From Anaerolineae bacterium (GTDB taxonomy: Bacteria > Chloroflexota > Anaerolineae > Promineifilales > Promineifilaceae): a DNA stretch of 64,000 nucleotides. Positions 1-64,000 of the stretch are shown here, piece by piece. Under the pieces are notes generated by a model, which was given only the letters and a program-made list of their open reading frames with translations, was not told where the DNA came from and did no database searches. Numbering within the stretch: the first letter of the stretch is position 1; each line of letters begins with the position of its first letter. The DNA is taken from positions 4,471-68,470 of the forward strand of contig JBGCDP010000222.1 in NCBI GenBank assembly GCA_045105475.1, read 5' to 3'. The translations under genes and the position numbers were made by a program.

Positions 1-209
1 TGTCTGGATAAGGCAAAAAAGCGAGTTGTTGACCCGGTTTTCGGTTCTTGAGTGGCTTCATGGCTCCCGAGGATAGCATGAACGGGATTTCTGGTAAACA
101 GTGGGGCGTTAGTCGGTCTGCTTCGCTGTCAGTAGTTGGTAGATGGGTGGTTATGTACTGTCTTACCGATCACTGGCGCAAAGCGAACCGAATACCTAAA
201 ATTCTTTGC

Positions 210-734
210 ATGGAACCAAATATGAAAAGTGCCCAACAACACCGTGATATCGCGGCCGGACAGCACGAAATAATTACTCTAGCGATTGTGACTGTGAGTG
301 ACACTCGCACACCGGAAACAGACACAAATCATCACTATTTGAGCGAGCAGATTGAAACGGCCGGACACAAATTAGTCGGCTATCGTATTGTCAAAGATGA
401 GGCGGACCAGGTCGAAGATGCCCTTGAAGAGATGGTAAACACCGGGGCGCAATTGATTATGTTTAACGGCGGAACCGGCATCGCCAAAAGGGATCGCACC
501 TATGATGTGCTGATTCGCAAAATCGAGAAAGAGATGAACGGGTTTGGAGAAATTTTCCGCATGCTCAGCTACGACCAGGTAGGAGCGGCCGCAATGTTTT
601 CCAGAGCAACGGCCGGGGTCTACAAAGACCGACTAATCATCACGACACCCGGCTCACCGGCCGCAATGCGTTTGGCTTGGGAAAAACTCATCTTACCAGA
701 GATTCACCATTTAGCTTGGGAACTCGTTCGATAG
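210..734 (+). CDS. moaB: Molybdenum cofactor biosynthesis protein B (MogA/MoaB family)
   Basis: The MoaB-like core has the motifs [13 protein letters not shown] and TTPGSPAA. The ORF is open from 48, but the ATG at 210 (MEPNMKS) fits the usual family length. Confidence 0.8.
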
Positions 735-870
735 TCGGCTGGCCTGCATTCATGTAGGAATCCCGTTCAAATGCGATGAATATATTGCGCTTTGCAAGCG
801 TTTGCATGAAACTCGCTAAGTTAGTCGGAGCCATACACCGCTCTAAAGAACTTAGCTAATGGAGGCCAAG

Positions 871-1335
871 ATGAACGACGTTCTCATCGAACTACTTTCA
901 CAAGAAAAAACCCTGCAGTTCACCCGTTTTAACGAAGATACAGCATGGGAGATCGGCCGCTGGTTGGTAGAACACGCTGCCGAAAACAGCCTGCCGATCA
1001 CCGTTGATATTCGACGGGGCGACCACCAAATCTTTCATGCCAGTCGGCCAGGAACCAGCGCCGATAATGACGTCTGGGTCATGCGCAAAGTGCGCCTCGT
1101 CAGCCGAACGGGTCACAGCTCGTTTTACTGGAGTCGCTTATTTGCCAGCGAAGGGACAACGATTGAAGAAACGCTTTTACTACCCGAAAGTGAATACGCC
1201 CCCCACGGCGGCTGTTTCCCGATTATTATCAAGGGAACTGGAATGATTGGAACAATCACCGTATCTGGCTTACCTCAGGAAGAAGATCATAAGTTGGTCG
1301 TAAAAGCCCTCACACACTACTTGGAGAAAAACTAA
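871..1335 (+). CDS. UPF0303 / heme-degrading-domain (GlcG-like) protein
   Basis: Length and motifs (GGCFPI, GTITVSGLPQEEDH) are typical of UPF0303. GGAGG at 861-865 favours the ATG at 871 over the one at 859. Confidence 0.6.
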   Translation: MNDVLIELLSQEKTLQFTRFNEDTAWEIGRWLVEHAAENSLPITVDIRRGDHQIFHASRPGTSADNDVWVMRKVRLVSRTGHSSFYWSRLFASEGTTIEETLLLPESEYAPHGGCFPIIIKGTGMIGTITVSGLPQEEDHKLVVKALTHYLEKN

Positions 1336-2514
1336 ATGTCTTTAAATCCGGTTATTTCAATTTTAGGGCGCAAATTACGTTTAGCCGTTATCGGCGGTGG
1401 CCCCGGCTCTTTTATCGGTGCCATGCATCGGCAGGCAGCTCGCATCGATGACCGTTATGAGCTTGTAGCGGGTGTCCTTTCGTCTAATCCAGAACGCTCA
1501 AAACAGGCAGGCCAAGAAATCGGCTTGGCTACAGATCGAATCTTTACCGATGTCATAACGATGCTCGATGCGGAAGCCAATCGGGAAGATGGGGCTGATG
1601 CGGTTGCCATCATGACGCCGAATGACAGCCATTTTGATTATGCGGTTGCGGCCCTCGAACGAGGCTTTGACGTGATCTGTGACAAGCCGATGACAAACAC
1701 GCTGGAGAATGCTGAAAAGCTGCACAAGATCGTGCAGGACAGTGGTCTGATTTTTTGCTTAACCCATAACTACACCGGCTACCCGATGGTGCGCCAGGCC
1801 AAGGCGATGGTTGAAGCGGGCGAGTTGGGAACGATCCGTCTTATCCAAGTTGAATATGTGCAGGGTGGGAATGCGGATGAAAGCCAAGACCCAAGCCCGG
1901 CCAATGGTAGCTTACCGTGGCGGCATGATCCGATAAAAGGTGGTCCGTCTTTGGTGATGGGGGACATCGGCACACATGCCCATAATTTGGTCCGCTTTAT
2001 CACCGGCCTTGAAGTTGCAGAAGTGTCGGCCGAAGCTGGGAGCATCGCCCCCGGCCGGATTGTGCATGACTACGCCGGTGCAATGCTTCGGATGGAAAAT
2101 GGGGCACGCGGCAGCTTCTGGGTGACCCAAGCAGCGGCCGGAGTTGAAAACTGCCTGCGCATACGGGTCAGCGGCAGTAAAGGGAGCTTAGAATGGATGC
2201 AGGAGTTTCCGCAGGCCCTCACATTTAAGCCGCTTGGTGCGCCGTCTCAAAATAGAACGCCAAACGGACCCGGAACTTTGCCTTTATCGGCACGGGCCTG
2301 CCGCATTGTGGCGGGGCACCCTGAAGGTTTTCATGAGGGGTTTGCTAACCTGTATTCAGATGCGGCCGAAGCGATTGCAGCTCGACGTGCTGAGTCAGAC
2401 GTTGATCCGCTCGCCATGCATTTCCCCAACTCTTTAGATGGGTTGTTGGGTGTAAAATTTGTTCACAGCGTAATCGAGTCAAGCAACGCTGACGGGAAAT
2501 GGACCGCCTGTTAA
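1336..2514 (+). CDS. Gfo/Idh/MocA family oxidoreductase
   Basis: N-terminal Rossmann motif LAVIGGGPGSFIGAMH and a CDKPM motif. The start ATG directly abuts the upstream TAA (TAAATG). Confidence 0.85.
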   Translation: MSLNPVISILGRKLRLAVIGGGPGSFIGAMHRQAARIDDRYELVAGVLSSNPERSKQAGQEIGLATDRIFTDVITMLDAEANREDGADAVAIMTPNDSHFDYAVAALERGFDVICDKPMTNTLENAEKLHKIVQDSGLIFCLTHNYTGYPMVRQAKAMVEAGELGTIRLIQVEYVQGGNADESQDPSPANGSLPWRHDPIKGGPSLVMGDIGTHAHNLVRFITGLEVAEVSAEAGSIAPGRIVHDYAGAMLRMENGARGSFWVTQAAAGVENCLRIRVSGSKGSLEWMQEFPQALTFKPLGAPSQNRTPNGPGTLPLSARACRIVAGHPEGFHEGFANLYSDAAEAIAARRAESDVDPLAMHFPNSLDGLLGVKFVHSVIESSNADGKWTAC

Positions 2515-2526
2515 TGAAGAACACAA

Positions 2527-7326: not shown

Positions 7327-8145
7327 ATGACACCCTGGAATCTCAATCAAACGTTTCAATTTAACGGCCGGCCGGTCCGCTGGGACAACGTTGGCTCAGG
7401 CCCACCGGTTGTAGTTGTGCATGGAACCCCGTGGTCAGCATTTAACATGCGCCATTTAATTGATGGGTTGGCGGCCGATTACAGCGTCTACTTTTATGAT
7501 TTAATCGGCTACGGTCAATCTGACCAAACGGCCGGAGACGTGTCACTCGGCATTCAAAATCGTCTACTGGCCGCCCTGCTTGATCATTGGCAGCTCGACA
7601 ATCCTCTGGTCATCGGCCACGATTTTGGTGGCGCCACCGTTTTGCGCACCCATCTGCTAAACGGTCGAAATTTCAGCAAGATTGTTTTAATCGACCCGGT
7701 CGCGGTTTCCCCATGGGGATCATCATTTTTCAAGCACGTTCAGCAGCATGAAGCGGCGTTTGCCGGGGTGCCAGACTATATTCAAGATGCGATTGTACGA
7801 GCTTATGTGCAAACGGCCGCCTATCAGCCGCTTGACCCTGAAACGCTTGATCAGATCGTTAAACCATGGAGTTCAGGTGATGGCAAAGCGGCTTTTTATC
7901 GGCAAATTGCACAGGCTGATTCAGCTTTTACAGATGAAGCGCAACAGCACTATGGCAAGATCATTCGGCCGACTTTGATTCTGTGGGGGGAAGAAGACAC
8001 GTGGATACCTGTTGAAAAAGGGGAACAGCTCCATGCGATGATCCCAAACTCGCAGTTTCATGTTATTCCCGAATCAGGCCATCTGGTGATAGAAGAACGG
8101 CCGGAACAATTGCTGAACCACATCCGGCGATTTTTACTGGAGTAG
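7327..8145 (+). CDS. Alpha/beta hydrolase (Asp-nucleophile type, epoxide hydrolase/dehalogenase-like)
   Basis: HGTPWSAF oxyanion region, IGHDFGG nucleophile elbow and a C-terminal SGHL motif. Confidence 0.85.
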   Translation: MTPWNLNQTFQFNGRPVRWDNVGSGPPVVVVHGTPWSAFNMRHLIDGLAADYSVYFYDLIGYGQSDQTAGDVSLGIQNRLLAALLDHWQLDNPLVIGHDFGGATVLRTHLLNGRNFSKIVLIDPVAVSPWGSSFFKHVQQHEAAFAGVPDYIQDAIVRAYVQTAAYQPLDPETLDQIVKPWSSGDGKAAFYRQIAQADSAFTDEAQQHYGKIIRPTLILWGEEDTWIPVEKGEQLHAMIPNSQFHVIPESGHLVIEERPEQLLNHIRRFLLE

Positions 8146-10946: not shown

Positions 10947-11140
10947 AACGAATAATCTGTTGGTCCAAACCAATTTTTACCGGTTGCTTCAAGTAAACAT
11001 TGAGATGGTAACTAAAAATTTTATGTAACGTTCATGCTATCATAAGATCGGCCGATTTCAAAGAGGAAGACATAGACAAGATGTTGAGCCACTGCGAATA
11101 ATTGTGCCTTTTAGCTTTGTTAAATAGCAGGAGTTTCAAA

Positions 11141-12292
11141 ATGTTAGTAAAGCGCCAGCAGCTAGAAGAATTAGAAAAAAACCATTTAGCTCCCTATGCC
11201 CTGAAAAGCTCAGAATCGGCCGGACGCGTCCATGCCGAAACAGAATCGGAGACTCGTACCGCCTTTCAACGAGACCGTGACCGCATCATCCATACCCGAG
11301 CATTTCGACGCCTTGAGTACAAAACCCAAGTGTTTATCTTCTATGAAGGTGACCACTACCGCACCCGCTTAACCCACACCCTTGAAGTGGCTCAAATCGG
11401 TAAGTCGGTGGCTCGTGGTTTAGGTGCCAATCAAGATTTAACCGAAGCGATTTGTTTGGCTCATGATTTAGGCCATTCTCCTTTTGGGCATGCTGGAGAG
11501 TGGGTGCTTGATGAACTGATGGCAGAACATGGTGGCTTTAACCATAACCATCAGAGCTATCGAGTCGTAACCGAGCTCGAAGAACGCTACCCTAGCTTTG
11601 CCGGGCTAAACCTAACCTACGAAACGCGCGAAGGGATGATTAAGCATGAAACCGATTATGACCATAGCCAAGAACATGAATACGCTCCCGGCCGACGTGC
11701 GTCGCTGGAGGCTCAAATCGCGAACTTAGCAGATGAAGCCGCCTACAACGCGCATGACTTAGACGATGGGATTCGGGCAGGCTTTTTTACTCCCGAAGAA
11801 CTAAATGAGCTGGCCATTTGGCAACGGCTGCGCAAAAACATAGGATGGGAGTCTGGGCCATTTACTGAAATGTTGCGCCATGAAATGATTCGTGAACTCG
11901 TCGGCATCTCAGTCAACGATCTAATTACATACACCGACGAACAGCTGTCAAACGCTGGGATAAACTCCCCGGACGGGGTGCAGCGGCACGATAGTAATAT
12001 CGTTAGCTATTCAGAACCGATGGGAGCTGAAATCAAGGCGCTCAAACGCTTTTTACTGACAAAAATGTATCGTCACTATCGACTGATGCGGATGCAGACG
12101 AAGGCTCGAAACTTCATCACCGATATCTTTAACGCCTATCTTAAAGAGCCATCGATGTTACCCGCCAAAACACAAGAGCGGCTGGCTGACCTTTCAAAAG
12201 AGATGGTGATTTGTGATTATATTGCTGGGATGACGGACCGGTATGCGTTGGATGAGTGGGAGCGGCTCTTTATGCCGTATGCGCGGCCGTAG
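11141..12292 (+). CDS. dgt: dGTP triphosphohydrolase-like HD-domain protein
   Basis: Motifs FQRDRDRIIHT, RLTHTLEVAQI and HDLGHSPFGH. AGGAG lies upstream of the ATG at 11141. Confidence 0.9.
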   Translation: MLVKRQQLEELEKNHLAPYALKSSESAGRVHAETESETRTAFQRDRDRIIHTRAFRRLEYKTQVFIFYEGDHYRTRLTHTLEVAQIGKSVARGLGANQDLTEAICLAHDLGHSPFGHAGEWVLDELMAEHGGFNHNHQSYRVVTELEERYPSFAGLNLTYETREGMIKHETDYDHSQEHEYAPGRRASLEAQIANLADEAAYNAHDLDDGIRAGFFTPEELNELAIWQRLRKNIGWESGPFTEMLRHEMIRELVGISVNDLITYTDEQLSNAGINSPDGVQRHDSNIVSYSEPMGAEIKALKRFLLTKMYRHYRLMRMQTKARNFITDIFNAYLKEPSMLPAKTQERLADLSKEMVICDYIAGMTDRYALDEWERLFMPYARP

Positions 12293-12321
12293 TCGTAAAT
12301 GCCGACATGGGATTTAGGTAG

Positions 12322-12352
12322 CAGATGTTGGTCAATTCTCAACCAACATCTG
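12322..12352. terminator. Stem-loop between convergent genes
   Basis: Perfect 11-bp arms cagatgttggt / accaacatctg with a 9-nt loop. There is no clear U-tract. Confidence 0.3.
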
Positions 12353-12363
12353 ACGTCTCGCGT

Positions 12364-13401
12364 TTAATCGTCTATCTGAACAAGGGAAAAGCCGTCCACA
12401 AACCAACCATTGTTTTCATGCGCCCACCGGCCGCGTGCGGCTAGCCCAATCTGCACCGTTTGGGTTGAATTAACCTCAAACACATGCCCGTACCGGTTCT
12501 TTTGCCCAATTGGAACAAATCGCCAATCGCTTTGAACCCCATTGACTAAAAAGCTGATTTCGGCCGCACGGTAATCATCAGCATAAACTTTTCCACTGGT
12601 TAAATAGTCGTCAACCATATCGGGGAAAACATGGATAGTGAACTGGTAGCGGCCGGGGTCAAGTTTAAGATTTTGGGTCAGCCTATAGCTTACAGAACCG
12701 TATCCTTTGAAGATTTTGACCGTCTGATTGCTATCAACAAAAAAATCGTTGTGCTCGTGTGACGGAATGTCAGCTTTTGACAGCACACGAACCTCCGGCC
12801 GGACCCATCGATTCCAATCTTCAGGGTCAAGCGGGTTGTAACCGATATCATATTCAAAGTTCCACAAGTCAGGAATCTGCAGTTCAATCACCCCATTCGG
12901 ATTGGTGAAGCCCATCTCAAAAGACGGGTTGAACAGCAGATTCGTGCCAGATGGAATTGAAGCAACCGTTGTTGGCACAATAGATGTTGGCACTTGGGTC
13001 GGAACCAAAGTTGGCGGCGGTGTGTTGGTTGGGAAAGGTGTTTTTGTTGGGAACGGTGTCCGCGTCTTAGTTGGAACCGGAGTTGGGAAAGGGGTATTGG
13101 TCGGCTTGGGTGTCACCACAAATTCTCCAACGGGGGTTGGGGTGATGATAGTCTGTGATTCTGGGGTGAAGGTTGGAGGCAAACTATTATCGGGCGTTGG
13201 TGTCGGTGTGTCTGGCAAAGGAGTCGCAATGGCAACGGCCAACGTTGGGATTTCAGCCACAACCTTTGGTGGGTTTGAGTTACAGCCTGCAATTGCCATC
13301 AGAGCGGATAAGGCAAGAAGCAGATAAACCGATGGCAAATTCAAAGCCTCTTTTATAGTTGATAGATTAAGTTGAATGCGGGATGATTCTTTTTTCCTCA
13401 A
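12364..13401 (-). CDS. Secreted lipoprotein with long Pro/Thr linker and a C-terminal jelly-roll (CBM-like) domain
   Basis: Lipobox AIAGC and about 110 aa of PT-rich linker. The C-terminal domain begins NLLFNPSFE, as in CBM4/9-type folds. The start codon is TTG. Confidence 0.5.
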   Translation of the reverse strand: MRKKESSRIQLNLSTIKEALNLPSVYLLLALSALMAIAGCNSNPPKVVAEIPTLAVAIATPLPDTPTPTPDNSLPPTFTPESQTIITPTPVGEFVVTPKPTNTPFPTPVPTKTRTPFPTKTPFPTNTPPPTLVPTQVPTSIVPTTVASIPSGTNLLFNPSFEMGFTNPNGVIELQIPDLWNFEYDIGYNPLDPEDWNRWVRPEVRVLSKADIPSHEHNDFFVDSNQTVKIFKGYGSVSYRLTQNLKLDPGRYQFTIHVFPDMVDDYLTSGKVYADDYRAAEISFLVNGVQSDWRFVPIGQKNRYGHVFEVNSTQTVQIGLAARGRWAHENNGWFVDGFSLVQIDD

Positions 13402-13522
13402 AATTAACTCGCTCTCCTAAATATAAATATCGAGCCGGGACCTTGATCAAAACCAAGCACCCAATATATTCAATTATTGACATAAGATCAAGGAATGTTA
13501 CGCGATTCGGTCTTGGACCCTA

Positions 13523-13562
13523 GAAAGCAAAACGGATTGGCATGCCAATCCGTTTTGCTTTC
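13523..13562 (-). terminator. Long perfect palindrome downstream of galK
   Basis: A 40-nt perfect inverted repeat, gaaagcaaaacggattggca/tgccaatccgttttgctttc, lies 30 nt after the galK stop. Confidence 0.5.
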
Positions 13563-13592
13563 TATAAACTGTTGTTTTGAACTTGTTCTTAT

Positions 13593-14735
13593 TTATTTTT
13601 CAACAATGGCTGCACCGGCCGTTGCTTTACAGATATAGATGTCTGGTTGTAAATCAGTGACTGCAAAATAGTCCCTAGCGATTTCAAGGGCAAAAACTTC
13701 AGCACGATCTTCACGAACGAGGGCCACAACACAGCCGCCAAACCCACCGCCAGTCATACGTGCACCGTAACATCCGGTTGATTCTTGAGCCAAGGCCGCC
13801 ATCAAATCAAGATCACGATTGGTTACTTCAAAGTTGTCGCGCAGGCTGTCGTGACTGGCGTTCATAAATAATCCCATCAAATGCGCATCACCAGCCCGCA
13901 TCGCTTTAACTGCTTGCAAAACTCGGTCGTTTTCGCTGATAACGTGCGTTGCCCGACGCAGTGGGATACGGCCTAAGCCTTCTGCCCCTTTTTGCAGTCC
14001 GACATTGGTTAAATCACGCAGATGGCTAACACCATAGTGGCGAGCCGCTTCTTCACACTCTTTACGGCGGTCGTTGTAGCCTGAGCCGGTATGGGTATGT
14101 CGAGACATCGTATCGAGAATGACAATCGCTGTTTTTTCTGGCAATGGCACCAATTGAGTTGATAGATCGCGGCAGTCGATCATTAGGGCGTGGTCGGCCG
14201 CACCGCTGGCTGAAATCATCTGATCCATGATGCCGGTGTTGGCACCCACCCAATCGTTTTCAGCTCGCTGACCAACTTTAGCCATCCTAGGTGCGTCCCA
14301 CTCTGTATTTGACAAGGCCATGAATGCCATAGCGGTTGCCATCTCAAGGGCGGCCGAAGACGAAAGCCCCGCCCCGACCGGAACATTGCTCGTCACAATC
14401 CCTTCCCACCCAGAGAGATCAAAGCCATCTTCAAGCAAAGCCCAAGTAACCCCTTTTAAATATTCTCCCCAACCTTCACCCGGTTCGCCTAAATTAGCGA
14501 TTTCAAACTCGGCAGGGTCATCCATTTCGAGTGATTTGACATGCACAAGGCCATCTTCACGCGGCCGAATGGCTAGCCAAACCGCTCGGTTAATCGCCAT
14601 CGGCATCACAAAGCCATCGTTATAGTCAGTATGTTCACCAATTAAGTTGACTCGGCCAGGGGCACGGATAACAAAGGCGGGTGCTTCGCCATATTTTTCT
14701 TGAAATTTTTGTTTGATCAGATCTTTAAGATTCAT
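13593..14735 (-). CDS. galK: Galactokinase
   Basis: GHMP kinase signatures GRVNLIGEHTDYNDG and PVGAGLSSSAA. Confidence 0.95.
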   Translation of the reverse strand: MNLKDLIKQKFQEKYGEAPAFVIRAPGRVNLIGEHTDYNDGFVMPMAINRAVWLAIRPREDGLVHVKSLEMDDPAEFEIANLGEPGEGWGEYLKGVTWALLEDGFDLSGWEGIVTSNVPVGAGLSSSAALEMATAMAFMALSNTEWDAPRMAKVGQRAENDWVGANTGIMDQMISASGAADHALMIDCRDLSTQLVPLPEKTAIVILDTMSRHTHTGSGYNDRRKECEEAARHYGVSHLRDLTNVGLQKGAEGLGRIPLRRATHVISENDRVLQAVKAMRAGDAHLMGLFMNASHDSLRDNFEVTNRDLDLMAALAQESTGCYGARMTGGGFGGCVVALVREDRAEVFALEIARDYFAVTDLQPDIYICKATAGAAIVEK

Positions 14736-14814
14736 GAGTTGGTCGCGATTAGTGGGTGGATTGACTTAGTTGATTTCCACTAGGAATCAACTTTCTTTGA
14801 CGGTCAGTATACCG

Positions 14815-15870
14815 TTATAAGTTGTTTGTTAAGTAGTGGATGTTTGGAAGTTCACGCAGACGTTTCGCTGCCTGTTCGGCCGTTAAGTCACGCTGAGCTT
14901 CACCCAGCATTTCAAAGCCGACAAGGAATTTTCGCACGGTTGCCGAACGAAGCAAAGGGGGATAGTAGTGAGCGTGCAGTTGCCAATGGCTCGTGTCAAG
15001 ATTTAAGTAACGGCCGGTTGGGGCGTTGTGCCATCCCATCGAATACGGAAACGATGTTTCAAACAGATTGTCATATTTGACCAGAAGCTGTTTGGTGATG
15101 TCTGCAAGGCTATCTTTTTCGCCTTCGGTCAGGTCGGTCATCCGCTGCACAGGCCGCTTGGGCAACACAAGCGTTTCGAACGGCCATAGGGCCCAATACG
15201 GCACGACAACGACCCAATGCTTATTTTCCACAACGATACGCTCTTGCTTTTCAAGTTCAAGATTAACGTAATCGACGAGCATCGGCCGACCATGCGTTTC
15301 AAAATATTCTTGCTGGGTCCGGTTCTCTGTATGCGCTTCTTCTGGCAGTGTGGTCATCGCCCAGACTTGCCCGTGCGGATGCGGGTTAGATGATCCCATC
15401 ATTGCGCCCCGATTTTCAAACAGCTGCACCCACGTATGCTCTGTACCTAAATCAACGAGCTGGTCGTGCCATAAGTCAACAACGGTACGCAGTTCAGCCT
15501 GAGACATTTCGGCCGGAGTCAAATCATGTCGGGGTGAAAAGCAGATAACGCGGCTGGTACCCTGTACGCCAGACGACATCAGCAGCGGATGCTCTGGTTC
15601 AGGTGTATCGGGGGAGTCAGTGAGCAGCGCAGCAAAATCGTTGGTAAACACAAACGTAGAATCGTAATCTGGATTTTGCACACCACCAGAGCGGCTATTG
15701 CCAGGACACAAATAACATTTGGGGTCGTACTCAGGCAGGTTAAGTGCGGCCGGTTTTTCAACCTGCCCCTGCCACGGCCGTTTGGTTCGATGGGGTGAAA
15801 CCAAAACCCAAGAGCCTTTCAAGGGGTTAAATCGTCTGTGTGGATGTTCTGTGGGATCAAATAATGTCAT
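14815..15870 (-). CDS. galT: Galactose-1-phosphate uridylyltransferase
   Basis: CYLCPGN zinc site and the HPHGQ active-site motif. The ATG at 15870 has GAGGA upstream. Confidence 0.95.
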
Positions 15871-15903
15871 GTTTTTCCTCACTCAAAGCGTTCAGTCCTT
15901 GAG

Positions 15904-15951
15904 TTCCGTTACCGGTAACGGAAATGTATTTGATTTGACAGCTTTCGTCAA
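15904..15951 (-). promoter_or_regulatory. Candidate galTK promoter with overlapping 20-bp perfect palindromic operator
   Basis: On the minus strand the sequence reads TTGACG (15951-15946), a 17-nt spacer, then TACATT (15928-15923). The perfect palindrome TTCCGTTACC/GGTAACGGAA (15904-15923) follows immediately. Confidence 0.45.
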
Positions 15952-16035
15952 ATAAGGCGAGCAAATGACCAACCATCAATCTCTAGCCCCATTTTAGTTT
16001 CACTTAGGTTTCTTTATTAGGTTGGAAATTTCGAA

Positions 16036-16779
16036 TTAGTGCATCGGGTAATATCCAAACCCCGTCCATTCTTCATACCATTTAAGTATTTCAAGTACGG
16101 TATTCGGTGATCTACCAAAATCAAGGAGGTATGTTTCTAAGTCAGATTTTGAAGTTGATAGTATGATGGTTTCAACCTGCATTTGATCATGGATATACGC
16201 GATCGATTCTCCAGTTGGGCTAAAATGTATCTTATAATTGCTGCGGCCAAAACGTGGGCCACAGCCACTTGCGACAATTCTTGCTGAAGTTTGCGGATAC
16301 ATAATAAATACCTGGTAGCAGGGTCGTGGTCCATGCGTTTCGTTATCGACGCTTATGTAGCCTGTTGATTCAAATAGCCCTAATGCATCTTCAAGCAAGA
16401 GCTTGTGGTGAATATTTAAATTAATAACTTCTACAACATTATTAACCATAGTAATCGCAACTCGGTTACTGGAAATATGTTCAATAGCGTAAATAACGCT
16501 TTCTTGCTTGGGATCTACAGGGTTTTTAGTTTGGGAACTAATTGACACATCATGGAGTTCAAGAGTGTCAATATAAAAGATACTTGAGTCATTTAAGATT
16601 TTTTCTAGCTCCTCCTTATTTGTTTCGTTTGGTGTAATTCCTTGCCAACAAGGGAAGTTACATGGAGTATCTCCCAAATAGCCTCTACCAAGAAATTCTT
16701 CTGAAAAAGTACTGCAACCTATCAGGAGTAATAGAACCCCTATGAACATTGCCGTCGTAATTAATCTTCTTATGGACAT
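16036..16779 (-). CDS. Hypothetical lipoprotein (low-GC gene)
   Basis: Lipobox LIGC. No recognised domain. The gene is AT-rich and has no CGGCCG copies. Confidence 0.5.
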   Translation of the reverse strand: MSIRRLITTAMFIGVLLLLIGCSTFSEEFLGRGYLGDTPCNFPCWQGITPNETNKEELEKILNDSSIFYIDTLELHDVSISSQTKNPVDPKQESVIYAIEHISSNRVAITMVNNVVEVINLNIHHKLLLEDALGLFESTGYISVDNETHGPRPCYQVFIMYPQTSARIVASGCGPRFGRSNYKIHFSPTGESIAYIHDQMQVETIILSTSKSDLETYLLDFGRSPNTVLEILKWYEEWTGFGYYPMH

Positions 16780-16852
16780 TTTTCCCTCAAGAAAACAAAC
16801 TTGATATCTGAGCTTTCAAGTTGAAACATGAAAAACCTTAGGTCATTATAAA

Positions 16853-17860
16853 CTATTCATACATCAACAATACGGTGGGCAAGGGTGAGAATGGCAATAC
16901 TTGAATCTGCTGGTTAGGATGATTCAAAATTAATCCGGTTGAGGGGCCCCCATCAAGATTAACCGCAATTTGTAGGTCTAAATCAGATTGAGCCAACCAG
17001 CTGCTCATTTCGCTCAGGGTAAACCAGCTTCGGCGGGTTACAAGGATAAGCACCCGGCCGCTTTTGTCTTTGCCGATCACCGTCCGCTGGGCCTGATCAC
17101 CGTTGTCGCTAGATGCAGGGAATGCGGCTGTGCCGCCACTGTGCACCAAAATCGGAAATGCTTGAAAGGCTCCCCACAAATTTTCGGCCGTGGAGTATGG
17201 TGTTTGCCTTAGCCAGCGCACGTCTAAATTCGGGGCAGGGGCATCGCCGTTTATCGTCACCATCCCAGCAAAAGGACCATAGCTTGAGCCAGAAGAATCG
17301 CCTTGGGCAATCGTTAGGCCGGTAGCGGCATATTCGGCCGTGAAATAACCTGCATTCAGCACCAAAAGTGCCCCGCTATCGCGCTGCCACGCATCGATTG
17401 TTTTTGGATTACCGGGGGTGTATCCCACGTCAAATCGAAATTGCGCCGGATCAAGCCGAATGATTGTCAAACGCTCACGAACAACGCCTGTTTCTGGATC
17501 AAGAAGTGGTAAGTCGCGTGTTTCTAAGCCTGCTTGCACTGTGATCCAACCTGTATCGGAAGGGCCAGCGTTTATCTCAGTCGGTTCTGGCTCAGGTTGC
17601 GTTGTTGGCAGATCAGTAGGCTCCACTATGATTGGCGTCTCAGCTGGAATTTGTGTTGGAAATTCGGTCGGAGCATCCGTCGGCCGAAGTGTGGGTGTTG
17701 CCAAAAAGGAGGCCTCTGTTTGTGGTTCATCACCGGCACCTGTGATTAAGTCTCTCACCGACAGGCCAAACATTAATAGTGCGATCACTATCCCGCCTAT
17801 CAATGAAAGGCCGATAAGATTTGAGAGGCAACTGCCTCTTGGCGTTTTTCGATTTGACAT
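16853..17860 (-). CDS. Phosphodiester glycosidase (DUF2233/NAGPA-like) family protein, membrane anchored
   Basis: Motifs NAGYF, RTVIGKDKSGRVLILV and VNLDGGPSTGL. An N-terminal TM segment is followed by a PT/E linker. Confidence 0.7.
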   Translation of the reverse strand: MSNRKTPRGSCLSNLIGLSLIGGIVIALLMFGLSVRDLITGAGDEPQTEASFLATPTLRPTDAPTEFPTQIPAETPIIVEPTDLPTTQPEPEPTEINAGPSDTGWITVQAGLETRDLPLLDPETGVVRERLTIIRLDPAQFRFDVGYTPGNPKTIDAWQRDSGALLVLNAGYFTAEYAATGLTIAQGDSSGSSYGPFAGMVTINGDAPAPNLDVRWLRQTPYSTAENLWGAFQAFPILVHSGGTAAFPASSDNGDQAQRTVIGKDKSGRVLILVTRRSWFTLSEMSSWLAQSDLDLQIAVNLDGGPSTGLILNHPNQQIQVLPFSPLPTVLLMYE

Positions 17861-17928
17861 TGTTTCGCTAGTATACTTTCAATGTAGTTGAACGACTCGA
17901 AAAAATCATCATATTGTGAGGCACGACG

Positions 17929-20262
17929 ATGGCAAAACTAAAAACAACCCAGCTCCGGCGCAAATTTGACTCTCCAAAGCTAAAGTTTAAATCGACTAAA
18001 GATATTGAACCGTGTACAACAATTATCGGGCAACCCCGTGGGGTTATGGCGATTGAATTTGGGATTGAAATGCAAAGTCCCGGCTACAACATTTATGTTT
18101 TAGGGGAGTCTGGCACAGGTCGCACAACAACCATCAAAAAGTTTATCGAAGGGCGGGTTGAAAACCAGCCGGTGCCAAACGACTGGATCTATGTTAACAA
18201 TTTCCAATCGCCCCACTCGCCACTAGCACTAGAGCTTCCGGCCGGAGAAGGGTGCCGTTTACGCGATAGTTTAGAGGAGTGCATCAGCCGCTTGCGCCAA
18301 GAGCTGTCACGAGCATTTGATAACCAGCAATTCCGGGATGAAGCCTTGGCGATGCGCCAACAGCTTGAAGCTGAACGCCAACAACTAATGAATGTTTTCC
18401 AGCGACAGGCAAACTCACAAGGTGCGGCTCTCATCCAGACCCCGGAAGGATTCCGCATATTGCCAACAAAAGAGGGCGAACCGCTCGATGCAGAAAAGTT
18501 TAATGCGCTGCCCGATGAAGAAAAAGAGTCCTGGCGTATCTTACAAAATAAGCTTGAAAAAGAATTAGCGGCCGTAATGTACCAAGCTCGAGCGATTGAA
18601 AACTCAGCCCAAGATCGAATGGAACAGCTGGTTCAACGGGTTGGTGCATCTGTCGTCGATGTCGCGATAACTGAAGTCGCTGGTCAATTTGAAAAACAAA
18701 CTGTCTTAAAAGATTATTTCCAGCAGCTGCGTGAAGATATTTTAAAAAATATAAATCTATTCCGCCAAGCAGCAACCCCAGAGGGGGCAGCGCAGATGCC
18801 GCCTGCATGGTTTAGGCGCTATCAAGTTAATGTGGTTATTGATCACAAATTGAGCAAAAAAGCACCGGTTATTGTTGAGTATGATCCAACATTGCCACGC
18901 TTGCTCGGCCGGGTGGAGCATGAAGGTCGGTCGGGGGGCGCTGTGGTCACAGACTTTACGCTCATACGAGCAGGCGCACTGCATGCGGCAAATGGTGGCT
19001 ATTTGGTCTTGCGGGCACGAGATCTGTTTGCGGCCCCACTGGCGTATGAAGCGCTAAAACGAGCCTTACTCGGCAACGCTGTCCGGCCGGACGACCCGGC
19101 GATTCGTGGTGGTGCCGCGACCCGTACGCTTGATCCGCAATCTATCCCGCTCGATATCAAGGTGATTTTGATTGGCCCACCAGCGCTTTATTATCAGCTG
19201 GCAGGGTTAGATGAAGACTTTGACGCGATATTTAAAGTCATGGCTGATTTTGATCAAACAATCGAACGCAACGAAGAAAACGAGATGGAATATGCGACGT
19301 TTATTTCAGCCCGTGTCGATGAGAAAAAACTCAAGCCGTTTGACCGCAGCGCCATCGGTAAAATAATTGAATACGGCTCACGCTTGGCCAGCGACCAAAA
19401 AAGGTTAAGCACGCGTTTCGGCGATATTTCCGATTTGTTGAGCGAGGCAGACCATTGGGCAGAGAAAGCTGGGAAGAAAAAGGTGGTCGCCGCAGATGTA
19501 ACCAAAGCGGTTGAAACCCGTATCTACATGCGAAATCGCATCGAAAATCGAATGCGTGAAGGGGTGCTCGATAAAAAACAACTACTCACCACAACTGGCG
19601 CAAAAGTTGGTCAGATTAACGGCTTGGCCGTATCACAGGTTGGTGATTACGCATTCGGCCATCCATCGAGATTGACGGTAAGAACCTATGTAGGCAAGAA
19701 AGGGGTGGTCGCTATTGATCGTGAAGTGAATATGGCAGGAGCCATCCACAATAAAGGGGTGATGATATTGACAGGATATCTAGGCGGCCAATATGCGGCC
19801 GATCATCCACTTTCACTGTCAGCACAGATTACGTTTGAGCAAAATTATGGTGGTGTTGACGGCGATAGTGCTTCGTCGACTGAACTGTACGCACTGTTGT
19901 CGAGCCTAACCAACATTCCGGTTAATCAGAGCATCGCAGTAACCGGGTCGGTCAATCAATATGGGGAAGTTCAAGCGATTGGAGGCGCCACGCACAAAGT
20001 TGAAGGATGGTACGAGGTTTGTCTCGATCAGGGGTTAACGGGCGAGCAAGGGGCGATGATCCCGGCATCAAATGTCGCTGACCTGATGCTACGCGATGAG
20101 GTAGTCGCAGCGGTGGAAGAAGGAAAATTCCACTTATGGGCGGTTGAAACGATTGATGAAGGCATCGAGATCATGCTGGGTGAAGAAGCGGCCGTGGTCC
20201 ATGAAAAGGCTCAGACAAAGCTAACAGAGTTGGCAAAAAAGATGGCTGAATACGACGGATAA
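17929..20262 (+). CDS. Lon-like ATP-dependent protease (LonB/COG1067-type AAA+ plus S16 domain)
   Basis: Walker A is GESGTGRTT. The C-terminal Lon Ser-Lys region has GVDGDSASSTE and GGATHKVEG. Confidence 0.85.
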   Translation: MAKLKTTQLRRKFDSPKLKFKSTKDIEPCTTIIGQPRGVMAIEFGIEMQSPGYNIYVLGESGTGRTTTIKKFIEGRVENQPVPNDWIYVNNFQSPHSPLALELPAGEGCRLRDSLEECISRLRQELSRAFDNQQFRDEALAMRQQLEAERQQLMNVFQRQANSQGAALIQTPEGFRILPTKEGEPLDAEKFNALPDEEKESWRILQNKLEKELAAVMYQARAIENSAQDRMEQLVQRVGASVVDVAITEVAGQFEKQTVLKDYFQQLREDILKNINLFRQAATPEGAAQMPPAWFRRYQVNVVIDHKLSKKAPVIVEYDPTLPRLLGRVEHEGRSGGAVVTDFTLIRAGALHAANGGYLVLRARDLFAAPLAYEALKRALLGNAVRPDDPAIRGGAATRTLDPQSIPLDIKVILIGPPALYYQLAGLDEDFDAIFKVMADFDQTIERNEENEMEYATFISARVDEKKLKPFDRSAIGKIIEYGSRLASDQKRLSTRFGDISDLLSEADHWAEKAGKKKVVAADVTKAVETRIYMRNRIENRMREGVLDKKQLLTTTGAKVGQINGLAVSQVGDYAFGHPSRLTVRTYVGKKGVVAIDREVNMAGAIHNKGVMILTGYLGGQYAADHPLSLSAQITFEQNYGGVDGDSASSTELYALLSSLTNIPVNQSIAVTGSVNQYGEVQAIGGATHKVEGWYEVCLDQGLTGEQGAMIPASNVADLMLRDEVVAAVEEGKFHLWAVETIDEGIEIMLGEEAAVVHEKAQTKLTELAKKMAEYDG

Positions 20263-26620: not shown

Positions 26621-26622
26621 CT

Positions 26623-40459: not shown

Positions 40460-40878
40460 CTGACTCTCCTAAATCATCAGTATTAAACATCACTGTGTAA
40501 CGTAAAACGCCCCACTAGGTACTTCTAGTGAGTTTTCGCTTCACGTTAACTGTTCGCAATTTGCGGGGAAAACTGTTTTTGTGCCGTTTTTTCTTTAAAT
40601 GTAATGTGAACGGCCAATAGTCTAAATTTTAGACAATCACTCTAAAAAGTAGGTGGGACTTTAATGTGGGGATTTTAACAGAAAAAGAGAATTTTTCATC
40701 CAGATACCTACGTTTCTCTGTTTTAGGTGTTTTAGGCAGCCGCTTTTTACTTAAAGTGAAAATTACAGGAAAAATCCCCTTCTAACTTATTTGCAACCTA
40801 AATTGCTCGAATCGAAAGCTTTTCCATAAGACTGGTCGGCCAAACTTTGTTAAGTACTTAGGTACTAGGAGATTGGTG

Positions 40879-61817: not shown

Positions 61818-62142
61818 ATGCTGCTCACGACGCTAAATTTATTGATTAAGGTTGATCACAATATTATTGAGAAATGTTAATTCAGACCAGCTTCGGCCGG
61901 AGCACATTATCCAGCCAACATCGTCCGGCCGATTTTTCACCAGCTCATGAATTCGTCACGTTCGTTTCAAACAGATAGCTATTCAAGACTTTCTGAAGCC
62001 GCTGATTGAGCATCCTCACTATTCTTCTAAATCTAAACTCGTTCTTTTTGGTAGCTGGTGGCTCATGGGTAACCGGCCGCTTCTTGTTCCAAATGATCTA
62101 CCGTATGTTACAAGCAGTGGAGTGCGGATACCCTGTGGGAGA

Positions 62143-62454: not shown

Positions 62455-62481
62455 AAGGGTATTGTTTGTGGAAGGTGCTGT

Positions 62482-62904
62482 TTAATTTTTCGGTTTCTCA
62501 CCCAGATACTGCGTGAAGCGGAGCATGTAACCGTCTGGGTCTTGAACAAGAAACTCCATTTGGCCCGATAGCGTTTTACCGGTGTCATACCAAGACTCTT
62601 TAGGGTCACGATATAGTTTTATCTGTACATCATTGATGCGAGTAAGAATAGGTTCAATATTTGTTAGCTCGATTTGGAAGTTCACCCCACGGCCGAAAGG
62701 ATGAGCCAAGTCTGCAACATTCCAACCTTCAGCATGAAATTGCTCGATCATGATCTGCACCTTTTCTTGTTCAAGATAGGCAAAAGCGGGTGATTCTCTT
62801 TGGTTCCGTACAGAAAAACCAAGTATTTCTGTATAAAAGGCAAGAGATTTATCGAAGTCTGAGACGGTGAGTTCAGGCACCATGACGTTCCAATATTCAC
62901 TCAT
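62482..62904 (-). CDS. VOC (glyoxalase/bleomycin-resistance) family protein
   Basis: N-terminus VPELTVSDFDKSLAFYTEILGF, with paired beta-alpha-beta-beta-beta modules. Confidence 0.75.
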   Translation of the reverse strand: MSEYWNVMVPELTVSDFDKSLAFYTEILGFSVRNQRESPAFAYLEQEKVQIMIEQFHAEGWNVADLAHPFGRGVNFQIELTNIEPILTRINDVQIKLYRDPKESWYDTGKTLSGQMEFLVQDPDGYMLRFTQYLGEKPKN

Positions 62905-63080
62905 TTTAATGCTCCAGAAAAGCAGAATTTTGGCTGGCTATTGTGACAAAGTATTAAGCTGCGCATGACCCCAATAGTACTCCAATTTCAGTCTTATCCC
63001 GCCTCGCAATCAAACAGACGACTGGCTTAGACGTTCCGCGTTAATTAACTTGTTACGGGAACTACGAAACGAAACGGCCG

Positions 63081-63650
63081 TTAGTCAGGTCTTGTGCACA
63101 GGTCGTATGTAGGGCAATGGAAGATGCAGGTTTGATGTCCTTCACCAAGTTGCTCTGAATCATGCACCGGTGATCCGTATTCTCCGACTTTCACTAGCAC
63201 CGATCCATTTTCCCAGCTCATGATGACACTGTGTTCGCGATCCCAAGGCACGCTTAGATCGAGGACGACATAGATCGGTTTTCCGGGATCGAAGTCAGGA
63301 GTTTGCCAGGGTGTTTCTGTCACCTGTTTGAGCTCTAATCCACCGAGCTTGACACCGTTCCAGATAGTGTCGAGTGTAGGAGCAACACCATTGAGCTCTT
63401 CAAGGATATGAGTCGGGTCGTGGACGGCTCTGCTCATCATGTTGAAGTGCGCTAGTAGGTGACGTGCCGCTTCGTCACGCTCGGCCGAGTTCTTGGATAG
63501 CAAAGCTCGCACCACGTCTACCGCTTGGGTCGAGTTTATGTCGTCGAGTTCAGAGAAGATGCTCAGCAGGGCACCGTCGAACATAGGGAGCGGAATTGCG
63601 CCGCCTCTCGTCTCTATCGCTTCAAGAATGTCGGTGTCAGTTATTCGCAA
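63081..63650 (-). CDS. Hypothetical protein (C-terminal part weakly reminiscent of DUF6985/immunity-like domains)
   Basis: 189-aa ORF. The segment YVVLDLSVPWDREHSVIMSWENGSVLVKVG is notable. It overlaps the upstream ORF by 14 nt. Confidence 0.4.
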   Translation of the reverse strand: MRITDTDILEAIETRGGAIPLPMFDGALLSIFSELDDINSTQAVDVVRALLSKNSAERDEAARHLLAHFNMMSRAVHDPTHILEELNGVAPTLDTIWNGVKLGGLELKQVTETPWQTPDFDPGKPIYVVLDLSVPWDREHSVIMSWENGSVLVKVGEYGSPVHDSEQLGEGHQTCIFHCPTYDLCTRPD

Positions 63651-64000
63651 AATGTTTCTCGGCTAATAACCTCATCACATCTAAACCATAGGTGAATCGA
63701 CGGCTATACTTTTCGTACTCTTCAACTGGTAACTGGCCTATGTTTTCAAAACCATCCAATAAATAGCCAGCTTCAAATTGCAAAAGTGGTTTTAAGCCAT
63801 CCTCATCGAGTGGCTTGTGACCAATAACCTCGCCCCCAACATAGCCGATTGAGTTGATATGGATCACCCCTTGCTCAATGATTTTGCATTCGTGGATATC
63901 TGCTTTTGTAGGATGATTTTCTCCGAACCAGTCATGTAAGCCAACTAAGACAGTTTTAGTTCTCCGGCCGCTTTTCTTCTTAATCAACAGTACACGGCCG
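63637..64000 (-). CDS. Hypothetical protein, probably 5'-truncated by the window edge
   Basis: The reading frame stays open to the window end. The only in-window start is the TTG at 63987. No family recognised. Confidence 0.35.
   Translation of the reverse strand, partial: GRVLLIKKKSGRRTKTVLVGLHDWFGENHPTKADIHECKIIEQGVIHINSIGYVGGEVIGHKPLDEDGLKPLLQFEAGYLLDGFENIGQLPVEEYEKYSRRFTYGLDVMRLLAEKHFANN

Follow-up and report, generated by a model that had tools for sequence, protein, structure and literature searches.

The hexamer CGGCCG occurs 194 times in the 64-kb window, the whole stretch of DNA analyzed here, which belongs to the MAG of an uncultured Anaerolineae bacterium (Chloroflexota). At a G+C content of 47.1%, 10.95 copies are expected, and the word is very probably a real, DNA-level and clade-specific signature of the HIP type. 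An earlier note on this DNA had read it as a hyper-iterated palindrome like HIP1, not accounted for by composition or codon usage, and this core reading is upheld.

Motif abundance

The observed-to-expected copy ratio (O/E) is 17.7 at zero order, 14.5 under a first-order (dinucleotide) Markov model and 7.5 under a second-order model of the whole window. The density is 3.03 per kb, or 3,031 per Mb, in the 64-kb window. A total of 178 copies lie inside the 57 called CDSs, 15 are strictly intergenic and one straddles the end of a CDS; 51 of the 57 CDSs hold at least one copy. A recount gave 12 copies in positions 1-3000, 10 in 20591-22639 and 10 in 33301-36300, exactly as tallied in the earlier note.

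Shuffling of the CDSs leaves most of the excess in place. Synonymous-codon shuffles, which keep the protein sequence and the codon usage, gave 24.4 ± 4.7 copies against the 178 observed (O/E 7.3, z = 33; 300 shuffles, maximum 41 copies). Codon permutation gave 18.1 copies and dinucleotide shuffling 13.8 (O/E 12.9). CGGCCG ranks first by a wide margin among all 4,096 hexamers of the window, followed by its own overlapping 6-mers, and hexamers unrelated to it reach an O/E of at most about 3. Other GC-rich palindromes in the window are not enriched (GCCGGC 0.9-fold, GGCGCC 0.4-fold, CCGCGG 0.4-fold, GCGCGC 0.06-fold), and CGATCG has 12 copies where about 14 are expected. The earlier note had reasoned that an O/E near 1 after codon- and dinucleotide-preserving shuffles, or a comparable enrichment of many GC-rich hexamers, which would point to composition, would refute its reading; with ratios of 7.3 (synonymous) and 12.9 (dinucleotide), and a ceiling of about threefold for unrelated hexamers, neither is the case.

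Repeat unit and one-base variants

The maximal-order Markov O/E for CGGCCG is only 1.35. This value is an artefact, because 83% of the CGGCC/GGCCG pentamers already lie within the hexamer. The 7- and 8-mers around CGGCCG have a maximal-order O/E near 1, and the unit is therefore the bare hexamer; the sequence flanking the copies carries at most 0.05 bit of information per position. Gaps between copies have a coefficient of variation of 0.96-0.99, which matches random occupancy of permissive sites without periodicity or evenness, as far as 64 kb with little power can tell.

The enrichment is confined to the exact word, and one-base variants stand at neutral levels. The Hamming spectrum to CGGCCG is 178 exact copies, 218 one-offs and 1,666 two-offs, with one-offs neutral relative to two-offs. 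Transition one-offs are the commonest neighbours: CGGCTG/CAGCCG with 53 copies (O/E 2.2), TGGCCG/CGGCCA with 38 (1.55) and CGGTCG/CGACCG with 25 (1.0), in a neighbour spectrum whose power is limited by the 64-kb window to 11-53 counts per variant class.

Distribution and conservation among relatives

Relatives were taken as independent assemblies from JGI, ENA, NCBI and Logan, and their distance was measured by Lon identity. The O/E of CGGCCG is 16-19 in relatives with at least 79% identity, 4.4-7.7 at 67-71%, 3.7 at 60% and 1.4 at 55%. Occupancy of permissive sites declines in the same order of relatedness from 54-73% to 24-42% and then to 8-16%, and the density in the close relatives is 3,190-3,890 per Mb. 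The hyper-abundance is common to no fewer than four relatives assembled independently, and it falls off by degrees. Among 80 genome-scan loci, 79 from other phyla and one from a Chloroflexota MAG, the median O/E is 1.27; the Chloroflexota MAG reaches 5.9, and the highest value outside Chloroflexota is 3.2. The pressure toward CGGCCG is active in several related lineages and weakens with phylogenetic distance.

Ortholog comparisons with relatives L082, L102 and L085 were made over a syntenic block at 11102..20262, which comprises an HD hydrolase, a 345-aa hypothetical protein, galK, galT, NAGPA and a Lon-like ATPase. A comparison of motif conservation between related genomes had been proposed as a check in the earlier note, and the outcome favors its reading: motif positions stay the same in 54-70% of cases, whereas control hexamers do so in 12-23% and other hexamers with two CpGs in 3-9%. 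Identity at 4-fold sites in these comparisons is only 0.34-0.38, so that synonymous sites are nearly saturated. The hexamers aligned to motif sites are bimodal in their Hamming distance from the word (H0 103, H1 14, H2 30, H3 30).

Proposed mechanism and alternatives

In the window and its close relatives, 52-73% of the sites at which the protein permits the word are occupied. A hexamer Markov model with a bias on the whole hexamer, in which each of the 18 routes of gain or loss is affected simultaneously, gains being raised about fourfold and losses lowered about fourfold, yields a 17.6-fold enrichment with neighbours at 1.00. In this model a spike at the exact word alone needs the bias on all 18 routes, which suggests that something reads the whole hexamer with a specificity like that of a restriction enzyme. 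The likeliest reader would be an enzyme that modifies DNA site-specifically and has no active cognate nuclease beside it, namely a predicted orphan CGGCCG cytosine methyltransferase. Its methyl mark may favor the survival of one strand or allele over the other in mismatch repair or recombination, in the manner of the 'G-meC-directed mismatch-repair ratchet' that Elhai put forward for cyanobacterial HIPs; the central GC demanded by that model is present in CGGCCG. New sites would be kept and losses corrected, so that CGGCCG would accumulate wherever proteins tolerate it and might occasionally carry amino-acid changes along.

Avoidance of palindromes under active restriction-modification systems is established. 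CGGCCG is enriched and not avoided, which speaks against a cognate restriction enzyme being active. Each of the alternate cyanobacterial HIPs co-occurs with a cognate methyltransferase (PMC4390886), and Dcm-type methylases with a predicted CGGCCG recognition exist (PMC6471742). Searches with Pfam and motif regular expressions covered the 64-kb window and the loci fetched from the relatives, and detected no gene for a DNA methyltransferase, Vsr, a nicking enzyme or a restriction enzyme. To our knowledge, no organism has yielded the enzyme that Elhai's model requires for G-meC-directed repair. Taken whole, the statement that CGGCCG is a lineage-specific HIP-type palindrome of an uncultured Anaerolineae clade, produced by a methyltransferase-linked bias, is put forward tentatively, with a chance slightly below even.

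The strongest rival is selection or molecular drive for a high-density word, such as a self-recognition or DNA-uptake (transformation) signal comparable to DUS and USS and recently proposed for HIP1. In the uptake version, uptake or recombination would favor fragments with CGGCCG, which would spread the word through the population. This would leave the same stationary pattern as the methyltransferase-linked bias, with the exact word raised and its neighbours neutral, and it accords with a signature that is clade-wide, kept in orthologs and present at least once in nearly every gene. A bare 6-mer that reaches 3-4.5 per kb and whose one-offs are not in excess is, however, unlike the known uptake sequences and would discriminate poorly against foreign high-GC DNA; its spacing shows no evenness in the 64-kb window, and no competence genes are located there. 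We regard this explanation as unlikely, although it keeps a real share of the probability. Repair or recombination bias and weak natural selection per site are inseparable by sequence alone, because both yield the same stationary pattern.

Far less probable is classical very-short-patch (VSP) repair, in which a Dcm-like methyltransferase together with Vsr restores C at a methylated position and turns T-variants back into CGGCCG. In E. coli, VSP repair is known to alter how frequent the oligonucleotides around CCWGG are. The earlier note had hinted at this mechanism by invoking a methyltransferase and mismatch repair, and dcm methylases of the CGGCCG type exist (PMC6471742). In the hexamer Markov model, VSP repair at one cytosine is capped at 3.5-fold enrichment and empties that T-variant class, and VSP repair at all three cytosines is capped at 13.6-fold and empties all transition variants, whereas the window has 17.7-fold enrichment with transition variants as its most abundant neighbours (O/E 1.0-2.2). 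The one-off spectrum and the model caps contradict classical VSP repair as the sole cause of the excess, and with it the single-base Vsr form of the hint, and that form only.

Reading frames, spacers and individual sites

An origin at the level of translation, as a by-product of codon usage, codon-pair bias or amino-acid composition, draws on the location of the copies: 92% fall within genes, the frame xCG-GCC-Gxx accounts for 62% of the coding copies, and GCC is chosen 110 of 127 times after NCG and before G. All three frames are nevertheless about equally saturated. Permissive peptide sites are occupied in 110 of 211 cases in xCG-GCC-G (52%; 12.4 expected), in 45 of 78 in xxC-GGC-CG (58%; 6.3 expected) and in 23 of 37 in the Arg-Pro frame CGG-CCG (62%; 2.1 expected), and the frame distribution follows the number of permissive peptides per frame. 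For positions 1-3000, the motif positions and gene starts reproduce the earlier frame count of nine xCG-GCC-Gxx, three xxC-GGC-CGx and no CGG-CCG; the lack of CGG-CCG is a property of these first 3 kb, and 23 copies in that frame occur window-wide.

In spacers, where the GC content is 39%, 15 copies stand against an expectation of 0.43, an intergenic O/E of about 35, and the ratio of motif to one-offs is essentially the same in intergenic (0.94) and coding DNA (0.82). The cause of the excess acts on DNA and not on translation, and is blind to frame and coding status. The view that codon choice produces the word is accordingly reversed, since synonymous choice is how coding DNA accommodates CGGCCG and not why it is present. 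With the O/E of 7.3 that remains after synonymous shuffling, the intergenic and three-frame data refute a translation-level origin, which we consider hardly credible. Simple base or dinucleotide composition has nothing in its favor beyond the word being GC-rich, and the same holds for a mobile repeat (REP or MITE) containing CGGCCG. Both are refuted, as practically negligible possibilities, by the 47% GC of the genome, the other GC-rich palindromes at or below expectation, the dinucleotide-shuffle O/E of 12.9, flanks and 7-/8-mers that leave the hexamer without a surrounding repeat unit, and copies that stand in frame inside conserved genes.

Copies may lie very close together. The abutting pair described earlier at 22590..22601 is real (CGGCCGCGGCCG, starts 22590 and 22596) and lies inside a gene for a 682-aa hypothetical protein. 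Two copies share two bases at 7365..7374 (CGGCCGGCCG, starts 7365 and 7369), and a second pair overlaps by two bases at 58148-58157 (starts 58148 and 58152). The intergenic copies include three in a 251-nt spacer at 26621..26871 (26696, 26718 and 26822); a 325-nt spacer at 61818..62142 also has three (61894, 61926 and 62074). An isolated copy at 37051..37056 (aaaaaagccCGGCCGattaaaaacc) is surrounded by AT-rich non-coding sequence, so that the word stands alone without a GC-rich context.

CGGCCG is absent from the spacers 25275-25606 and 42706-43101 and from the gene 16036..16779, as the earlier note had it, but absence is not general to spacers, the others of which hold the 15 copies. The gene 16036..16779, on the minus strand, has 38% GC and a GC3 of 33%, with none of its four permissive sites occupied, and has no match in Pfam. 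It sits between galT and NAGPA, which adjoin in relatives L082 and L102, and has probably been inserted recently, without having acquired CGGCCG yet. The longest stretch free of the motif, 40356..42398, covers a spacer and most of an M12-peptidase gene (43.5% GC); the flanking copies start at 40350 and 42399, 2,049 nt apart.

Relation to known iterated words

Several classes of frequent word do not describe CGGCCG. Dispersed repeats of the REP/MITE type are extragenic, extend beyond their core and have either an imperfect hairpin or conserved flanks, whereas 92% of the CGGCCG copies stand in frame within genes and their flanks are not conserved. Strand-polarized words (Chi, KOPS/AIMS) are set aside, as CGGCCG is its own reverse complement and skew is impossible. 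Uptake sequences (DUS/USS) are non-palindromic words of 9-12 nt at about one per kb, with near-matches tolerated and often paired in terminators, and they go with a competence apparatus that has a sequence-specific receptor. CGGCCG shares with the Neisseria DUS and the Pasteurellaceae USS the nature of a lineage-specific word that is found both in genes and in spacers, reaches about one copy per kb or more and reflects transmission bias and not coding needs. It differs in being a 6-nt palindrome that is about threefold denser and has no flank preference; with flanks of at most 0.05 bit it is not an asymmetric 9-12-nt word with an extended consensus.

The effect of Dcm/Vsr at CCWGG in E. coli is modest and is accompanied by depletion of the T-variant. 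The likeness lies in a palindrome recognized by a methyltransferase whose frequency is shifted by repair bias; CGGCCG is enriched 17.7-fold without a depleted variant, and the VSP signature is thus absent. The preferred site of Dnd phosphorothioation in Streptomyces lividans was mapped to CGGCCG/GGCC, the same 6-bp palindrome (PMC6435447), which makes a Dnd system an alternative candidate reader; the passage on this mapping reports no genome-wide enrichment of the site.

The HIP1 element of cyanobacteria (GCGATCGC) is likewise a short GC-rich palindrome, over-represented at least 15-fold at about one per 300-400 bp. It too occurs in several coding frames and in non-coding DNA, is lineage-wide and has positions conserved beyond controls and codon effects (PMC5861425). 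HIP1 densities range from 300 to 2,700 per Mb (PMC4390886), and CGGCCG equals or exceeds the upper end of this range with 3,031 per Mb in the window and 3,190-3,890 per Mb in the close relatives. CGGCCG is not HIP1 proper, nor a CGATCG or GATC-core derivative of it: the word has 6 nt instead of 8 and no GATC core, hence no Dam-type site. One-off variants are common in HIP1 genomes and biased to outer positions (PMC4390886), whereas those of CGGCCG are neutral. HIP1 has a quasi-periodic chromosomal spacing (Xu et al. 2018); the gaps here (coefficient of variation 0.96-0.99) come from a 64-kb window, which has little power to reveal such a pattern. The abundance of HIP1 is stated not to occur outside cyanobacteria (PMC5861425), and the host of CGGCCG belongs to Chloroflexota. 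CGGCCG resembles this unexplained palindrome, in another phylum and with another word.

Hexamer alternate HIPs with other sequences have already been described in cyanobacteria (PMC4390886). Literature searches found no described equivalent of CGGCCG, in line with the novelty claimed for it earlier, and a HIP-type element is apparently undescribed outside cyanobacteria. The balance tips slightly toward a HIP system that arose independently there, with a whole-hexamer CGGCCG drive in uncultured Anaerolineae that fills more than half of the permissive sites and carries amino-acid replacements along. If so, living relatives that span 1.4-fold to 19-fold enrichment would make the 30-year-old question of HIP origin testable by comparative genomics, through gene gain or loss that tracks the gradient; a methyltransferase, a nicking enzyme and an uptake receptor are the candidates.

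The alternate HIPs of Elhai (2015; PMC4390886) are GGCGCC in Calothrix PCC 7103/D253, GCsGC in Cyanothece PCC 7822 and rCCGGy in Oscillatoria PCC 10802, explained there by a cognate methyltransferase and G-meC-directed mismatch repair. Like CGGCCG, they are bare GC-rich palindromes of 5-6 nt with a GC step and an O/E of about 15-20 (15.5 for GGCGCC in Calothrix D253), and correspond to a Type II recognition sequence. They are sporadic in single strains and not in clades (Elhai), whereas CGGCCG is found in at least four relatives, and their cognate methyltransferase is documented where that of CGGCCG is only predicted. Genomes with HIPs of the class given by Elhai (2015) encode a methyltransferase that matches the word in specificity and is usually an orphan. 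Of the other features of the class, CGGCCG shows four: it is a gross outlier of high density, present in the coding frames and in non-coding DNA, at positions that are shared and conserved.

Abundance of CGGCCG and the repeat unit

The palindromic hexamer CGGCCG occurs 194 times in the window (64,000 bases, 47.1% GC), where 10.95 copies are predicted from base composition. The observed/expected ratio (O/E) is 17.7 for a zero-order model, 14.5 for a first-order and 7.5 for a second-order Markov model. The hyper-iteration claimed in an earlier note, made from the sequence without database searches, is thus confirmed; its counts for three regions (12, 10 and 10) are exact, and the abutting pair that it placed at 22590-22601 is present.

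The 57 called coding sequences (CDS) make up 88% of the window and carry 178 copies. Synonymous-codon shuffling within each gene gave an expectation of 24.4 ± 4.7 copies (maximum 41 in 300 shuffles; O/E 7.3, z = 33), codon permutation 18.1 copies in CDS (O/E 9.8) and dinucleotide-preserving shuffling 13.8 copies in CDS (O/E 12.9). The excess therefore persists when codon or dinucleotide content is held constant. Under the synonymous shuffle CGGCCG is the extreme outlier of all 4096 hexamers, and the runners-up are its own overlapping 6-mers. Comparable enrichment of many GC-rich hexamers, which the earlier note had named as evidence against its claim, is not seen: in the window the other GC-rich palindromes stay at or below 0.9× (GCCGGC 0.9×, GGCGCC 0.4×, CCGCGG 0.4×, GCGCGC 0.06×).

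The maximal-order Markov O/E of the word is just 1.35, because 83% of the CGGCC/GGCCG pentamers fall within CGGCCG. For the 7- and 8-mers around it the maximal-order ratio is about 1, and the flanks hold at most 0.05 bit of information per position. The repeat unit is the bare hexamer CGGCCG. Gaps between copies have a coefficient of variation of 0.96, a spacing not distinguishable from random, and no signal of even or periodic spacing was found in the window when compared with a random filling of permissive sites (peptides whose codons allow the word).

Reading frame and intergenic DNA

The earlier note derived the word mainly from synonymous codon choice, on the frames of its first twelve copies. 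Recomputed from positions and gene starts, these frames are as reported: nine xCG-GCC-Gxx, three xxC-GGC-CGx and no CGG-CCG. The absence of the last frame does not extend to the whole window, where 23 coding copies are read as CGG-CCG. Occupied sites amount to 110 of 211 (52%) for [S/P/T/A]-Ala-[V/A/D/E/G] in the frame xCG-GCC-Gxx, 45 of 78 (58%) for x-Gly-Arg in xxC-GGC-CGx and 23 of 37 (62%) for Arg-Pro in CGG-CCG, with 12.4, 6.3 and 2.1 expected, respectively, from codon usage. The coding copies split 110/45/23 by frame because the permissive peptides differ in frequency, occupancy being about the same in the three frames. It is also fairly even from gene to gene.

Two AT-rich spacers and a low-GC gene were correctly noted as free of the word, but intergenic DNA overall (7.5 kb, 39% GC) carries 15 copies against 0.43 expected. 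These copies are often isolated within AT-rich sequence, and there are 0.94 exact copies per one-base variant in intergenic and 0.82 in coding DNA. With all three frames about equally saturated and intergenic DNA enriched too, synonymous codon choice is rejected as the source; the enriching pressure is on the level of DNA, not of translation.

The low-GC gene is an ORF at 16036-16779 (-) of 247 amino acids, with 38% GC and 33% GC at third codon positions; none of its four permissive sites is occupied, and no Pfam match was found for it. It separates galT from NAGPA, which adjoin in two relatives (L082 and L102, see below), and was probably inserted recently and has still to acquire the word.

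Other features of the window

A lone tRNA gene (36208-36288, -; Rfam RF00005, 55.7 bits) is located in a spacer flanked by two small genes and has no CGGCCG inside. PYLIS_3, the pyrrolysine insertion sequence of mttB, was matched by Rfam at 51459-51558 (+) with 38.3 bits (threshold 38), inside an MttB-family ORF (50301-51971). This ORF is unbroken over Pfam profile positions 2-485 of 500 and therefore has no in-frame amber codon; the match probably reflects homology of the coding sequence and not a pyrrolysine element. The neighbouring ORFs 3093-3446 and 3522-4022 (+) correspond to the N-terminal (profile 1-43) and C-terminal (67-123) parts of one TPM_phosphatase domain; they may be a single gene that has been split or frameshifted, or the product of an assembly error.

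Distribution among relatives

The window sequence was also found in the Logan assembly of SRR29999185. The Lon-like ATPase (17929-20262) served as the yardstick of relatedness, and the contigs of its homologues were fetched. CGGCCG enrichment declines with Lon distance: O/E is 19-23 at 87% identity (L082-L084; JGI, Logan), 16 at 81% (L085, GCA_020629055.1), 18 at 79% (L102, ENA), 4.4-7.7 at 67-71% (five contigs, one a 'Candidatus Promineifilaceae' MAG), 3.7 at 60% (L087, the complete 5.2-Mb Anaerolineaceae MAG CP070822.1) and 1.4 at 55% (L105, a 6.4-Mb genome). Saturation of permissive sites ranks likewise, from 54-73% through 24-42% to 8-16%. The strongly enriched assemblies comprise GCA_020629055.1, JGI 3300053785 and 3300054976 and ENA ERZ25074695; the intermediate ones are GCA_049614105.1, ERZ25072999, ERZ26696514, GCA_020344355.1 (CP070822.1) and DAOMOK01, and the 6.4-Mb genome without enrichment is ERZ26167216. 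Long-read assembly is the origin of several of the relatives (contig names of the type ctg309149_4x_l). The signature is a heritable property of the clade, and it is not an assembly artefact, because it appears in assemblies that four sources produced independently.

A control set of 80 loci was obtained by a genome scan with the highly conserved propionyl/acetyl-CoA synthetase gene (63-70% identity); all but one, L004, are from other phyla. Their median O/E is 1.27, with L004 (5.9×) as the sole standout and a maximum of 3.2 among the remaining 79. L004 (DAOMOK010000002.1, a Chloroflexota MAG with 56% GC) has CGGCCG as its top palindrome and 42% of its permissive sites occupied, and the signature may extend to further Chloroflexota lineages. 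A metagenome scan with the S8 peptidase gave relatives of at most 43% identity, none of them enriched in CGGCCG (O/E 0-2.3).

For close relatives (L082/L083, JGI Ga0535658_0002759 and Ga0535667_0010854; proteins P0009 and P0095) the source names given by NCBI are 'Cellvibrionaceae bacterium' and 'Pseudomonadota bacterium'. At least two NCBI contigs with these labels encode a Lon 86-87% identical to that of the window. The contigs of P0009, labelled Cellvibrionaceae, share the synteny galK-galT-NAGPA-Lon with the window and carry 3.9-4.5 copies of CGGCCG per kb; for P0095 the whole basis of the assignment is its 86% Lon identity. To judge by these features, the contigs labelled Cellvibrionaceae or Pseudomonadota look like mis-binned Anaerolineae, and CGGCCG would be a strong binning marker.

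Several other palindromes deviate as well. AT-containing ones are in mild, about two-fold excess in the window (ATCGAT 37 copies, TGATCA 42, GATATC 23), and in several relatives and controls, too, ATCGAT is one of the leading palindromes. In contrast to the enrichment of CGGCCG, the window shows strong avoidance of GGATCC (1 copy, about 14 expected), CCCGGG (1, about 12), GCGCGC (1, about 18) and TATATA (0, 8-22). The relatives L082, L085, L102 and L086 are poor in GGATCC and CCCGGG as well; GCGCGC is low in the three close ones and only mildly so in L086. Avoidance of this kind is what restriction-modification pressure usually leaves behind.

Orthologous sites and protein sequence

Orthologous sites were compared over the segment that runs from the HD hydrolase to Lon (11102-20262), whose synteny is shared by L082 and L102. 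Four-fold degenerate sites are 34-38% identical between the compared genomes, which is near saturation. Motif positions are shared at 54-70%; the corresponding figures are 12-23% in control hexamers and 3-9% in other two-CpG hexamers. Sites permissive in both genomes are 75-90% occupied irrespective of the state of the other genome, but there are too few of them to tell inherited copies from copies regained independently; at these doubly permissive sites, occupancy in one genome had no clear effect as a predictor of occupancy in the orthologue. Where at least one genome has the motif, the aligned hexamers are bimodal (103 exact, and 14, 30 and 30 with one, two and three mismatches): an orthologous site holds the exact word or is several changes off.

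Many lineage-specific copies accompany an amino-acid replacement, for example Ala-Asp-Val to Ala-Ala-Val in Lon, Ala-Pro-Arg to Ala-Gly-Arg in GalK, and a Phe-Pro to Arg-Pro. Permissive tripeptides are somewhat over-represented relative to shuffled proteins (z about 3.2 in two of three classes). The pressure appears to be strong enough for a slight imprint on protein sequence, a point that is suggestive rather than proven; a drive on the DNA level could shape proteins towards x-Ala-x, Gly-Arg and Arg-Pro.

Exact-word spectrum and mechanism

The nine classes of one-base variants have an O/E of 0.45-2.2 in the window, the three transition classes being commonest. In coding DNA there are 178 exact words, 218 hexamers with one mismatch and 1666 with two; one-offs are neutral relative to two-offs, and the exact word alone is about 17-fold high. 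The depletion of one-off neighbours that marks very-short-patch (VSP) repair was not found in the window counts. Hexamer evolution was modelled as a Markov chain. A Vsr-type bias on one cytosine caps the O/E of the motif at 3.5× and empties the corresponding T-variant class; on all three cytosines it caps the O/E at 13.6× and empties every transition class. A bias on all 18 routes of gain and loss (gains ×4.2, losses /4.2) gives 17.6× with all neighbours at 1.00, and is the model that agrees with the observed spectrum. Classical Vsr repair, at which the earlier note had hinted, is therefore not the cause. Under the chain model the acting agent must read the whole hexamer, regardless of which position differs, and the exact-word-only spectrum restricts models to whole-site recognition.

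What acts in this clade is a frame-blind, lineage-specific bias of about 17-fold on the whole hexamer. The reader of CGGCCG would be a protein with restriction-enzyme-like specificity; an active cognate nuclease is unlikely, since the word is enriched rather than avoided. The closest precedent is Elhai's work on the alternate highly iterated palindromes (HIPs) of cyanobacteria. Each of these (GGCGCC, GCsGC, rCCGGy) was found together with a methyltransferase of matching specificity, and in Elhai's model mismatch repair directed by G-meC retains mutations that create a site and reverts those that destroy one (PMC4390886). As this ratchet reads the presence of the whole site, a neighbour-neutral spectrum is predicted, as here, and CGGCCG has the central GC that the model requires; the cytosine to be marked under the model is C4. 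Among enzymes, dcm-type methylases predicted to read CGGCCG exist (PMC6471742), and CGGCCG is also read by the Dnd phosphorothioation system of Streptomyces lividans (PMC6435447).

No gene for a DNA methyltransferase, Vsr or a restriction enzyme or nuclease was found by Pfam in 50 of the 57 window ORFs, or by motif regular expressions in six-frame ORFs, both those of the window and those of nine related loci. The sole methyltransferase match, at 8705-9403, belongs to the class I SAM enzymes that act on small molecules and was rejected as a DNA methyltransferase. By analogy with the alternate HIPs, a CGGCCG-specific modification enzyme is a predicted component. The chief alternative is that selection or drive favours a function dependent on a high density of the word, foremost a self-recognition or uptake signal as lately proposed for HIP1, the cyanobacterial case; the sequence statistics fit this and a repair bias alike.

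Comparison with known systems

The HIP-like reading of the earlier note is supported, with corrections on reading frame, spacers and the Vsr-type mechanism. CGGCCG behaves as a member of the HIP class in every feature tested, namely its over-representation, its density and distribution, and its conservation both within the lineage and at individual positions. The features that define VSP signatures, uptake sequences, REP/MITE repeats or polarised words are absent. Full-text literature searches, whose incomplete coverage leaves room for an earlier description, turned up no prokaryote described as enriched in CGGCCG and no account of HIP-like words from Chloroflexota or from other phyla. HIP1 has so far been regarded as a cyanobacterial peculiarity, and to our knowledge three decades have brought no agreement on its mechanism and function. 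The graded relatives (1.4×, 4-8× and 16-19×) offer a natural experiment through which the responsible gene may be found; if CGGCCG is indeed an independent second HIP system, its natural range of strengths would make the origin of HIPs testable. CGGCCG differs from HIP1 in its word, which has no GATC core, and in its phylum; unlike the alternate HIPs of single cyanobacterial strains, it is common to a clade with a graded fall-off. That another word behaves alike in a second, unrelated lineage speaks for HIPs as a general result of some modification, repair or uptake process.
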